Below are positions 3,758-10,831 of a stretch of DNA of 24,000 bases, piece by piece. The notes below the pieces were generated by a model. It was not told the origin of the DNA, did not search any database, and saw only the letters and a program-made list of their open reading frames with translations. A program made the translations under genes and the position numbers. The stretch is from Pseudonocardiaceae bacterium YIM PH 21723 (GTDB lineage: Bacteria; Actinomycetota; Actinomycetes; Mycobacteriales; Pseudonocardiaceae): positions 191,577-215,576 of the forward strand of contig QZFT01000034.1 in NCBI GenBank assembly GCA_003600225.1, given 5' to 3'. Numbering within the stretch: position 1 is the stretch's first letter; every line of letters starts with the position of its first letter.

Positions 3758-4129
3758 TCAGGAGTGGAACAGGCCGGTGACGCCGGTCATGGTGCCGCCT
3801 ACCAGGTCGGCGCTGCGCTGGAGGAGTTCTGCCGGGAAGCCGAGCAGGTCCGGGACGGGGGCCGGGGTGTACTCCGGCTGCGGGGAGAACCGCGGCTCCG
3901 GCAGCCGGGGTGCGGGGAGCGGGCTCCCAGTAATGGCCGTGGTGGTGGTCGTCGGGGCCACGGTGCTCGTGGCGGCCTCCGGAACCGGCTCGGTCACCGT
4001 GGTCACCGTGCCCAGCTGCGGCGTGTGGTAGCCGAGGCCGTCGAATACGGCACCCGAGGCCACGGCCGTCGACATGCCCAGCGCGGAGATCGCCCCGGCC
4101 AGCCCCAGCACCGCTGTGTTGCGCTTCAT
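3758..4129 (-). CDS. Small secreted Pro/Thr-rich protein (hypothetical, 123 aa)
   Basis: The ATG at 4129 gives MKRNTAVLGLAGAISALGMSTAVASG, a signal-peptide-like N-terminus with AVA-SG. A Thr/Pro-rich region follows. The upstream 415 codons of the 538-aa track ORF are antisense to the peptidase gene and were rejected. Confidence 0.6.
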   Translation of the reverse strand: MKRNTAVLGLAGAISALGMSTAVASGAVFDGLGYHTPQLGTVTTVTEPVPEAATSTVAPTTTTTAITGSPLPAPRLPEPRFSPQPEYTPAPVPDLLGFPAELLQRSADLVGGTMTGVTGLFHS

Positions 4130-8280: not shown

Positions 8281-8727
8281 CTACGCCAGCTCCACCGGCT
8301 TGCGCCCGAGGATGAGGTCCTCCAGGCCCTTGTCCAGGGCGCTCCACCGGGCCACCCAGTCGACGACCAGGTAGAGGCGACCCTGTTCGTCCATGCCGAG
8401 GAAGTAGTGGCCGTAGTTCAGCTCGCCGATCGGGTACAGGGTGACGCCGAGCTCCTCACCCCACTCCTGGAACCGCTCCTCCTCGCCGTCGAGCAGCACC
8501 GGATCGATCTTGAACGGCTCCCTGGCCCTTTCCAGGCCCGGGCCGGAGATGGTCACCGATAGCCCACCGAATTCGGCGAGGAAGCCCTCGACCACGGCAT
8601 TGGGCGCGAACCCGGAGGCCTGGAAGAACTCCCGCCACCGGGAGATGTCCACCCGGCGCTCCGGCGACCAGCCGGCGGCACGCAGGGCCTGCTCGGTATC
8701 ACTGGTGAATCTGCTGTGCTCAGACAT
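8281..8727 (-). CDS. SUKH-3-like immunity protein (148 aa)
   Basis: Internal ATG at 8727, in an 8-nt overlap (ATGTCTGA) with the toxin stop. LRAAGWSPERRVDISRW...FLAEFGGLSVTISGPG...PFKIDP...GEEERFQEWGEELG..LYPIGEL..G.YFLGMDEQGRLYLV matches the SUKH-3 pattern as I recall it. The track's 232-aa version is an N-terminal shadow extension over the toxin gene. Confidence 0.75.
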   Translation of the reverse strand: MSEHSRFTSDTEQALRAAGWSPERRVDISRWREFFQASGFAPNAVVEGFLAEFGGLSVTISGPGLERAREPFKIDPVLLDGEEERFQEWGEELGVTLYPIGELNYGHYFLGMDEQGRLYLVVDWVARWSALDKGLEDLILGRKPVELA

Positions 8728-9286
8728 TGGTGTGCGTGCCCTCCGGGATCCAGTTGAGGCCATAATGGCTGGATAGGACCGAGCAGCTGGCACAGGGTGG
8801 GGCATGGTTCCCGTGCCCGGGCTTGGCGGGGTCATTCTTGATCGACATGGCCGTTGCCGTCGCACCGTGTGGATTGTGCCCGCCATCCAAGGCTGTGCTG
8901 AGGACCTTGGGCATGCCGCACTTGCCGTGGCCGAGACTCCGCTGTGTCTCCGGAATACCGTCCAGCAGACCCTGGACATGCGGGTGCAACGGCGGCGGGT
9001 CGCCCCGGTGACTGAGGTCGACGATCGGGTTCTGCTGACCGCGGATGATGATGCCCTCGGAGATCGCCGGCCGGGCCTTGTTCGGCCGGATGGCAGAGGC
9101 CTGATCCGCGCGCGCCCTGACCCCGTCGAGTAGCCGCTGGTTAGCCGCCTGCTGGTCCCAGGACGGCTGCCGGGTCACCTGGCTGGGACCGCCCCGGTTC
9201 GGGCGCTTGCCGCCCCGGAGCTTTTTCCCGATGTTCTTGAACAGCCCGAGCGTCTTGCCGCCGAGGCCCTTGAACCTGTTAGCCAT
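8720..9286 (-). CDS. Polymorphic-toxin C-terminal module, deaminase-like (YwqJ-like, tentative)
   Basis: 188 aa. The N-terminal Gly/Lys/Arg-rich linker (MANRFKGLGGKTLGLFKNIGKKLRGGKRPNRGG) is followed by LHPHVQGLLDGIPE...GHGKCGMPKVL...APPCASCSVLSSHYGL. PCxxC plus an upstream His/Cys resembles zinc deaminase toxins. The gene sits directly upstream of, and overlaps, a SUKH-3-like gene. Confidence 0.6.
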   Translation of the reverse strand: MANRFKGLGGKTLGLFKNIGKKLRGGKRPNRGGPSQVTRQPSWDQQAANQRLLDGVRARADQASAIRPNKARPAISEGIIIRGQQNPIVDLSHRGDPPPLHPHVQGLLDGIPETQRSLGHGKCGMPKVLSTALDGGHNPHGATATAMSIKNDPAKPGHGNHAPPCASCSVLSSHYGLNWIPEGTHTNV

Positions 9287-9779
9287 TGAGCACCGAGTTC
9301 ATCGCCAGGTTCAGCGCCTGGTCGATCAGCAGCTTGGTGAGCGCCCGGAAGGCCGGGATCTCCAGCAGCGAGGCGCCGAAGGTGACGAACGCGGTCGCGA
9401 TGGCCTGGGCGATCTCCACGGCCAGCATCGCCAGCTGCACGATCACCGCGGTCTTCAACGCGATCACCACGCCGGCGCACACGTAGAGCCCGGTGCCCAC
9501 CAGGGTGGACGCGATCGAGCCGTCCTCCAGGTTCTGCTTCGGTGCCTCGCCGTGCGACCAGAAGGCCTTCAGCTTCTCCATCGCCTCGCCGGAGTTGCTG
9601 CTCAGCATCTGCTGGGTGTGCCCGTCGGTCTCCGAGGCGGTGTGCTCCAGTTTGCCGGCGAACCCCGACCACTGGCCACCGAGGTCGAACATCTTGCCCT
9701 CGTTGCTGAGCGGCCAGTTGAAGCCGAGGGTGTTGAGCAGTCCGGACAACTCGGACGGCAGCATGAGCCCGTTGCTCAC
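9279..9779 (-). CDS. T7SS-effector-type N-terminal (WXG100-like) delivery domain with two TM helices, encoded as a stand-alone protein
   Basis: GTG 9779 overlaps the upstream stop (GTGA), with GGAGG 7 nt upstream; ATG 9764 is an alternative start. The motif MLPSELSGLLNTLGFNWPLSNEGKMFDLGGQWSGFA resembles the N-termini of actinobacterial polymorphic toxins. Hydrophobic segments: STLVGTGLYVCAGVVIAL and VIVQLAMLAVEIAQAIATAFVTF. The TAA at 9279-9281 lies inside the next gene's start (ATGGCTAA). Confidence 0.65.
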   Translation of the reverse strand: MSNGLMLPSELSGLLNTLGFNWPLSNEGKMFDLGGQWSGFAGKLEHTASETDGHTQQMLSSNSGEAMEKLKAFWSHGEAPKQNLEDGSIASTLVGTGLYVCAGVVIALKTAVIVQLAMLAVEIAQAIATAFVTFGASLLEIPAFRALTKLLIDQALNLAMNSVLNG

Positions 9780-10099
9780 TCCAGGCCTCCGGACAGCGTG
9801 TGGAAGAAGGTCTTGTTCATCGACTCGGTCTCGGTGTAGGTGGCGGCCATCTGCTTGACGCCGTCGGCGATCTCGTTCAGCCCCTCGGCGTTGTCCTCGA
9901 AGCACTCGAACGCCGCCTCGGAGATCCCCTGGTAGATCATCCCCAGGATGGATCCGAGGTCGTCGTCGCCGAACGCGTCGGCGAGGGCCGCGGTCTGCGA
10001 GCGGAACGCGGCGATGTCCCCGGTCAGCGCCTGTCCGGCGGCCAGGAGTTTCTGCGCCGTCCCACCGATCATGTCGGGAAGGACGTGGAAATCGGGCAT
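9776..10099 (-). CDS. Small helical WXG100-sized protein (candidate T7SS substrate/partner), 107 aa
   Basis: ATG 10099 with GGGGGGAA 7 nt upstream. The protein looks all-helical, with a central turn AFGDDDLGSILG and no canonical W-x-G. It lies between a YbaB-like gene and the effector N-domain gene. Confidence 0.65.
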   Translation of the reverse strand: MPDFHVLPDMIGGTAQKLLAAGQALTGDIAAFRSQTAALADAFGDDDLGSILGMIYQGISEAAFECFEDNAEGLNEIADGVKQMAATYTETESMNKTFFHTLSGGLE

Positions 10100-10114: not shown

Positions 10115-10831
10115 CTAATCCAGGTTGTGCATGATCGAGGTCATGCTGCTCGTGTAGGTCCGCAGGTGCTGCATGCTCTGTTCGCGGATAGCCCCGGCCC
10201 GCTCGCTCAGCTTCCGCAGGGCCTCCGGGTCGATCTCCGTGCCACCAGCCGCCTCGGCGCGCCGCTCCCAGGCGGTCAGCGCGGCGTTGACCGCCTGCGC
10301 CACCGCCCGGCCGACCTCACCGGGCGTCATCCGCTGAGCCGGTGCGCTCAGCGTCAGCTCGGTCAGCTCGCCGTCGGTCACCACGGCGATGACCTCGTCC
10401 GCCTCGTCCCGGCCTTCCCCGGTGACCGGCGCGGCGGGCCCGGCGAGCGCGTCCTGCATGGATCGGATCACCTGGAGCGCGTCGTCGAACAGGAAGTCGA
10501 CGTACTGCGGCGACGCGTCTCCCTGGATCCGGGCCTTGCCGGCCAGCTTCGCCATGGACTCCTCCACCGCGCCCTGGATCCGGCGGAAGGTCTCGCCGCT
10601 CTCCCGCGCGACGTCGGTCAGCTGGTCGCCGATCGCGGCGAGGTCCGGGCCGGGATCACCGGCCCGGGGCGACTCGGCGAGGGCCTGCGGCAGGACATCG
10701 TTGACGGCCGCCCGCAGTCGGCCTGACAGCTCACGACCGATATCCGGACCGAGGGTGATCGACGTGATCCGCCGATCGGACATCTTCACCCGGATGGTGC
10801 CCGCGACCTGCGGGTCTTCACGCTGAACCAC
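10115..10831 (-). CDS. Tandem YbaB/EbfC-like domain protein (238 aa)
   Basis: GTG 10831 with a GGGGGG run 4 nt upstream. Two YbaB-like modules are visible: GTIRVKMSDRRITSITLGPDIGRELSGRLRAAVNDVLPQAL and VIAVVTDGELTELTLSAPAQRMTPGEVGRAVAQAVNAAL. It is the first gene of the toxin operon. Confidence 0.65.
   Translation of the reverse strand: MVQREDPQVAGTIRVKMSDRRITSITLGPDIGRELSGRLRAAVNDVLPQALAESPRAGDPGPDLAAIGDQLTDVARESGETFRRIQGAVEESMAKLAGKARIQGDASPQYVDFLFDDALQVIRSMQDALAGPAAPVTGEGRDEADEVIAVVTDGELTELTLSAPAQRMTPGEVGRAVAQAVNAALTAWERRAEAAGGTEIDPEALRKLSERAGAIREQSMQHLRTYTSSMTSIMHNLD

Follow-up and report, generated by a model that had tools for sequence, protein, structure and literature searches.

A probable two-gene version of an actinobacterial type VII polymorphic toxin, with carrier and toxin as separate proteins

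Introduction

[quoted passage not shown] The closest described systems are the fused WXG100_2 toxins of Actinomycetota, among them CpnT of M. tuberculosis with EsxE-EsxF and its immunity factor IFT (PMC8092274, PMC12635105), the eat loci (EatA-TapA1-TapA2-EatI) of Mycobacterium abscessus, with export by ESX-4 (PMC13444075; bioRxiv 10.64898/2026.08.24.746431), and the LXG toxins of the Firmicute T7SSb with their Lap targeting factors (PMC9600955, PMC10801868). [quoted passage not shown] A search of the literature gave no description of a trafficking domain and a toxin as separate proteins, an absence that is no proof in itself.

The locus considered here lies in a stretch of 24,000 nucleotides from Pseudonocardiaceae bacterium YIM PH 21723, which is called the window. 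The canonical fused arrangement, in which the trafficking domain and the toxin domain are on one polypeptide, is not what is found at this locus. It is quite probable, in our judgement, that the locus represents a conserved two-gene version of the actinobacterial type VII (ESX) polymorphic toxin, composed of a carrier and a cargo.

Genes of the locus

The cassette is encoded on the minus strand of the window, and its features are listed below in the order of transcription.

10115..10831 (-): YbaB/EbfC-like protein, 238 aa, first gene of the conserved delivery module (from the ORF list)
9776..10099 (-): WXG100-like helical partner, 107 aa, with a C-terminal Y-x-x-x-E motif (YTETE) and weak WXG100 and PE matches
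9279..9779 (-): carrier, 166 aa, a WXG100_2 (CpnT-like N-terminal) helical hairpin with a long hydrophobic helical segment (PF25547, E 2.9e-13); C-terminus ...NSVLNG-stop
9279..9286 (-): stop/start overlap ATGGCTAA, the module boundary (from the sequence and homologous junctions)
9143..9286 (-): basic leader of the toxin ORF, residues 1-48, pI 12, containing GLFKNIGKKLR (from leader alignment and charge)
8723..9142 (-): toxin domain, YwqJ-like deaminase, with PPCASC and with C-G-M replacing C-x-E (PF14431, 30.2 bits)
8720..8727 (-): toxin/immunity stop/start overlap ATGTCTGA, 8 nt (from the sequence)
8281..8727 (-): SUKH-3 immunity protein, 148 aa (PF14433, E 1.6e-28)

The start codon of the carrier, GTG at 9779, overlaps the TGA of the partner as GTGA. 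The toxin ORF (8720-9286 (-)) encodes 188 aa, comprising the basic leader and the YwqJ-like deaminase. The calculated masses are 17.5 kDa for the carrier and 19.9 kDa for the toxin ORF, in agreement with the separate 17-kDa and 20-kDa products expected by the first-pass annotation. The 238-aa YbaB-like protein of the window has no significant Pfam match, and its counterpart in a paralogous cassette of the same genome matches PF02575 (YbaB) with an E of 2.4e-5, just under the cut-off.

Delivery module and type VII secretion

The carrier matches PF25547 over residues 19-141 with a score of 50.5 bits, against a cut-off of 27. Its AF2 model is all-helical with a pLDDT of 70.5, and the helices at residues 27-61 and 65-75 reach pLDDT values of 80-88. 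The model has a WXG100-like helical hairpin fold, for which the top Foldseek matches are EsxA, EsxB, and EsxEF, with target TM-scores of 0.83-0.91 and rmsd values of 1.2-1.7 A over ~90 residues, at a weak E of only ~0.1. Residues ~88-144 make up a strongly hydrophobic segment of ~57 residues in the hydropathy profile.

In the 80 loci fetched from reference genomes, a WXG100-like partner lies directly 5' of the carrier in 77, and YbaB-like homologues are found upstream in the same orientation in 36 by tblastn. The sequence Yxxx[DE] is the export motif of T7SSa. It occurs within the last 35 residues in 52 of the 70 upstream ORFs that were picked, and the C-terminus of the window partner (...ATYTETES...) contains it as well, as a sequence motif only. 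The genome has a single ESX cluster, with the EccB, EccD, and EccC genes on contig C68, and these ESX genes are not near the cassette. Collectively, the loci reveal a conserved delivery module, which comprises the YbaB-like protein, the 107-aa WXG100-like partner with Yxxx[DE], and the 166-aa WXG100_2 carrier. It is followed by a variable payload module, in which a basic leader, a toxin, and an immunity gene can be recognised.

Stop/start overlap and initiation of toxin translation

On the minus strand, the carrier ends as ...CTC AAT GGC TAA, with the TAA at 9281-9279, and the toxin frame opens as ATG GCT AAC in the +1 frame, with the ATG at 9286-9284, which gives the 8-nt overlap ATGGCTAA. 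In the toxin frame, a TGA is present at 9301-9299 (tca on the plus strand) as the fifth codon 5' of the ATG. At 8727-8720, the junction of toxin and immunity gene, ATGTCTGA, repeats the 8-nt +1 geometry of the carrier/toxin junction. The first-pass annotation had reported the division into two overlapping ORFs, the toxin-frame stop five codons upstream of the ATG, and the same overlap architecture at the toxin/immunity junction; all of these details proved correct on re-reading.

The junction was surveyed in 82 loci, which are the 80 fetched from reference genomes, the window, and the paralogue. In 68 of them, the carrier overlaps by 8 nt with a downstream ORF of 60 aa or more, so that the overlap in the window is far beyond chance. 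The consensus of the overlap is RTGGNTAR, and the carrier stop is TAG in 44, TAA in 20, and TGA in 4 of the 68 overlap loci. The remaining 14 loci mostly have a leader-bearing gene that starts a few nucleotides past the carrier stop, in varying frames. A toxin-frame stop immediately 5' of the start codon is seen in 7 loci. Over the first 45 downstream codons, GC3 is 0.90 in the toxin frame versus 0.60 in the carrier frame, and it is 0.93 in the toxin frame of the window's own leader; this frame switch in GC3 indicates that the coding really changes frame at the junction and that the leader is translated. An element resembling GGTG, AGGTG, or GAGG is located 4-10 nt upstream of the start codon in 55 of the 68 loci, in a sequence that is also constrained by coding. 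These survey data fit independent initiation: translation of the toxin begins at a start codon of its own, in the +1 frame.

The conservation of the overlap sequence and of its +1 geometry is also compatible with programmed +1 ribosomal frameshifting at AAT-GGC-TAA, which would yield a fused carrier-toxin at least partly. An A-site stop codon classically stimulates +1 frameshifting, as in prfB. Against this explanation, the slippery P-site codon of the prfB type is missing, because the last sense codon of the carrier is variable (GGC, GCC, GGG, GGT, GTC, and GGA) and none of these codons is able to re-pair in +1. Frameshifting of the prfB type also needs no independent start, whereas the codon at the overlap position in the 68 loci is always a valid one, ATG, GTG, or TTG, and never CTG; in addition, the loci with no overlap put the toxin gene in other frames or past the stop. 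Programmed frameshifting was rejected for the lack of a slippery codon and the conserved start codon in the +1 frame, and is considered very improbable.

The overlap also fixes the first residues of the toxin ORF as M-A-(R/K), encoded by ATG GCT AGG or AAG, in the window and the 68 homologous junctions. The AG/AA of ATG GCT AGG/AAG belongs to the carrier stop, and the first basic residue of the leader is partly stop-encoded in this way.

Conservation and age of the split

The same genome carries a paralogous five-gene cassette of the same layout on contig C18. Its DNA is 82% identical to that of the window over a stretch that coincides exactly with the carrier gene (positions 2-503 of the 1060-nt query), and the similarity stops at the junction. 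The paralogue junction (AATGGTTAG; CTCAATGGTTAG) has the same 8-nt overlap and ATG; it has TAG in place of TAA and GGT in place of GGC, and reads CTC AAT GGT TAG. Since the Gly codon and the stop have changed and the overlap is nevertheless the same, sequencing error cannot explain the split. The 187-aa ORF downstream of the paralogous carrier is unrelated to the window toxin.

This 187-aa ORF (L001:864-1427 (-), contig C18) has no Pfam match and clusters with six Lentzea/Umezawaea loci, and is a candidate for a new toxin family.

Stand-alone homologues of the carrier, 160-167 aa in length, number at least 147 in a protein search. They come from Amycolatopsis, Lentzea, Umezawaea, Saccharothrix, Actinosynnema, Saccharopolyspora, Micromonospora, Actinomadura, Thermomonospora, and other genera, in the families Pseudonocardiaceae, Micromonosporaceae, Thermomonosporaceae, and others, and an alignment of 27 of them has a common end column. 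An exhaustive search of 1.84 billion representative proteins returned 578 matches at E up to 1e-3. Among the best 150 of these 578 matches, together with a few found earlier, 61 have lengths of 150-175 aa, 47 of 280-500 aa, and 8 of more than 500 aa. In an unrooted maximum-likelihood tree of 127 N-domains, a single branch (support 100/98) has 59 split and 2 mid-length forms on one side and 53 fused, 11 mid-length, and 2 split ones on the other. Of the exceptions inspected, P0166 and P0213 are fragments with a visible frameshift, and P0195 is a carrier whose tail is of low complexity. From this single branch, we conclude that the split is one ancient event that has been retained across several actinobacterial families. 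Gene fission is the more likely direction, as judged from the unrooted tree, because fused forms are what is found among the more remote members of PF25547.

A normally fused gene in the window could also have been broken by an indel in sequencing or assembly, or by a recent frameshift that made it a pseudogene, and relatives in the fused form, 300-430 aa long, do exist. In contrast, the real frameshifted members, P0166 and P0213, look different and have garbage tails. The window junction recurs in the paralogue, which has diverged from it by synonymous changes and a change of stop codon, and in loci from different families, and the split forms make up one clade. Sequencing error or decay was rejected because the junction is conserved in the paralogue and in 68 of the 82 loci, and its probability is negligible; that the two-gene architecture is real can be regarded as near certain from these comparisons. 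The first-pass annotation had preferred a genuine two-protein arrangement over random decay and had proposed an alignment of homologous loci as a check. The related loci are split at the same point, with the 8-nt overlap in the majority of loci, and the arrangement is kept in the paralogue and forms its own clade in the N-domain tree, all of which bears out that preference.

Five further PF25547 matches are present in the same genome, in open frames of 241-1652 aa (C24:241598-241951 (+), and also on C79, C29, and C39), and the match at C24:241598-241951 (+) is located ~26 kb past the window end. The longer of these frames (420-1652 aa) are presumably fused forms, and the protein of 222 aa encoded in the 241-aa frame (L007) lacks a toxin domain. 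Split and fused forms are thus probably both present in this genome.

Payload diversity and exchange at the junction

The ORFs downstream of the carrier are 160-300 aa in length and fall into at least 13 unrelated clusters in the 82-locus survey. The payloads named by Pfam are EndoU (12 loci), Endonuclease_NS_2, XOO_2897 deaminase, GH-E, and Ntox21, and a YwqJ-deaminase payload occurs only in the window among the surveyed loci. Variable toxins behind a conserved N-terminal part, with an immunity gene directly downstream, are thus found here as in polymorphic toxins.

In 53 locus pairs, unrelated toxins follow carriers whose last 300 nt have an identity of 80% or more. In 30-nt windows across the junctions of these pairs, the identity drops from ~0.8-0.97 just 5' of the stop to ~0.3-0.6 just 3' of it, and then to background. 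In Actinomadura latina (L098), an orphan leader-toxin ORF lies 1.75 kb 3' of the junction (L098:5643-6251 (+)), and in front of it stands a 107-nt direct repeat of the carrier 3' end (83% identity), including CTCAATGGCTAAGGGC. The orphan toxin is an orthologue of the toxin found on a full-length carrier in L076, and the last 300 nt of the L076 and L098 carriers are 92% identical. By analogy with CdiA-CT and Rhs orphans, this remnant reads as the signature of cassette displacement. Within 3.5 kb, L098 was the only one of 80 loci with an orphan cassette, and none was seen in the window's genome. The first-pass annotation had raised a cassette-swapping junction as one explanation of the split, and this proposal has gained support, since the loci cease to be homologous at the junction and the L098 orphan retains it. 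The comparison of loci identifies the junction as the boundary at which payload cassettes are exchanged.

At L063:1779-1901, a 125-nt copy (81% identity) of the carrier 3' region is located 1.7 kb upstream of the carrier, and could represent either a second cassette in tandem or a remnant.

Basic leader of the toxin ORFs

The first 45 residues of the downstream ORFs have a median net charge of +9. The motif G-[ILVM]-[FLM]-x-x-[IAVLMG]-x-x-x-[LMF]-[RKL] is present within the first 60 residues in 41 of 66 downstream ORFs, which belong to 7 unrelated clusters, and occurs 0 times in the remainder of those proteins and once in reversed controls; the motif was composed after viewing the alignment, and its counts are descriptive. 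The window's copy is GLFKNIGKKLR. The strict motif is absent from 25 of the 66, including an entire cluster of 17 with a different basic leader.

Fused relatives have a basic helix after the N-domain (e.g. ...DIFERAKGLLKK...) that is similar-looking to the leader. When a leader HMM was run against the linkers of 47 fused relatives, it scored no better than against reversed sequences, with the best matches at residues 165-195. The toxin ORF had been described earlier as opening with the Gly/Lys/Arg-rich linker that normally joins the two halves. The basic opening is indeed present, but it is not a mere leftover linker, being a conserved leader shared across unrelated toxins.

A hydrophobic TM-like helix precedes the leader motif in some of the downstream ORFs, namely those of L059, L060, L062, L080, and L098 (starts near 3985-3994). 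Their sequences suggest a membrane-anchored variant of the cargo.

Toxin domain and immunity protein

The toxin ORF matches PF14431 (YwqJ-deaminase) with an E of 5.8e-7 and 30.2 bits, against a cut-off of 25.9. The PCxxC zinc motif is kept, with PPCASC of the window aligned to PPCRSC of the relatives. The catalytic glutamate of the [HC]-x-E motif is replaced: the corresponding residues are C-G-M in the window, C-G-L and C-A-L in its two nearest relatives, and C-A-E in more distant relatives. The window toxin and these two relatives share H-G-x-C-[GA]-[ML], with the His two residues before the Cys (window 8783-8929 (-)), and on sequence grounds the Glu-less deaminases look like a conserved subfamily rather than a product of decay. 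Because the canonical catalytic Glu is absent, deaminase activity and the catalytic mechanism are uncertain. A single-sequence AF2 prediction of the toxin ORF had a pLDDT of 49, and the model is unusable.

Among proteins of 103-329 aa, no close homologue of the toxin was found besides itself, and the distant relatives came from a six-frame search. The nearest relative, 40% identical in the toxin domain, forms the C-terminal module of an open frame of 3204 aa in a related genome (L101:1291-1863 (+)), where the toxin module comes directly after a HINT-like ...VLTHNC motif. This frame indicates that the same toxin also serves as a fused, self-cleaving cassette.

The SUKH-3 protein, encoded directly downstream of the toxin, matches PF14433 over residues 7-140 of 148 with 100.1 bits. 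SUKH-3 was found in none of the 80 other loci, suggesting that the immunity gene varies with the toxin.

Proposed mechanism

A carrier-and-cargo mechanism with export through the genome's ESX system is plausible, with a chance that we put at about even. Translation of the toxin would be coupled to termination on the carrier by reinitiation, aided in most loci by the GGTG/AGGTG Shine-Dalgarno-like element. The short amphipathic helix of the leader (the G-[ILVM]-[FLM]-x-x-[IAVLMG]-x-x-x-[LMF]-[RKL] motif) would dock the toxin non-covalently on the carrier/partner pair, and the complex of carrier, partner, and toxin would exit via the single ESX system. The toxin could then be freed with no proteolytic cleavage, and the SUKH-3 protein would shield the producer.

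The two proteins might also be real and yet have no carrier-and-cargo relationship. The carrier/partner pair would then be a membrane-active ESX substrate or pore through which the basic-leader toxin passes a membrane, like EsxE-EsxF with CpnT, or the toxin and immunity proteins would act intracellularly in the style of toxin-antitoxin or abortive-infection systems and be only co-transcribed with that pair. The ~57-residue hydrophobic segment of the carrier speaks for such a membrane role or independent function, as does the TM-like helix that some downstream ORFs have of their own before the leader motif. This is hard to reconcile with the tight 8-nt coupling kept in 68 of the 82 loci and with a leader that is common to unrelated toxins solely in this context. 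Moreover, the fused relatives show both parts working as one polypeptide, and the toxin families and SUKH immunity are those typical of secreted polymorphic toxins (PMC3482391). We consider it unlikely that the two proteins are unconnected in this way, and prefer the carrier-and-cargo interpretation.

If the carrier-and-cargo interpretation is extended to the secretion system as a whole, the T7SS would have true cargo effectors, that is, toxins with no helical T7SS domain of their own that are exported in trans through docking of a basic leader of ~35 residues on a dedicated WXG100_2 carrier/partner pair. This generalisation from the sequences is tentative, and we rate it as somewhat less probable than its negation. 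If true, the leader would be a portable ESX export tag, and the split would replace proteolytic toxin release. The large and old split clade makes non-covalent cargo export by the T7SS, a minimal docking tag, and toxin release testable. There is also a consequence for annotation, in that toxins of 160-230 aa following a "hypothetical" protein of 165 aa are missed by searches that expect fused polymorphic toxins.

Comparison with known systems

In type VI secretion, the same toxin can be either fused to a delivery part or carried non-covalently, as specialised and cargo effectors, respectively. Orphan CdiA-CT and Rhs-CT cassettes keep part of the conserved gene upstream, through which recombination can occur (PMC3482391), as is seen in L098. 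The secretion machines and proteins of these systems are different from those considered here, and the likeness is one of analogy only.

The LXG toxins with Lap targeting factors resemble the window locus in their composite export signal, in which small helical partners bind a helical trafficking domain, and in being polymorphic toxins with adjacent immunity genes. In contrast to the window locus, their toxin and trafficking domain remain covalently linked, the helpers alone being separate, and both the domain family and the secretion subtype are different.

The eat loci are likewise actinobacterial T7SSa antibacterial toxin loci, with one or more small WXG100-like partners upstream, a helical trafficking domain, a variable payload, and an immunity gene downstream. 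This comparison is one of layout.

The fused CpnT-like toxins share with the window locus the PF25547 N-terminus, the small Esx-like gene or genes upstream, the variable toxin, and the immunity gene downstream. The fused CpnT-like homologues, at 35-41% identity, have a total length near that of the window pair. Compared to these fused toxins, the window toxin forms a polypeptide of its own that has an independent start codon and opens with a basic leader, and the split forms constitute a clade of their own.
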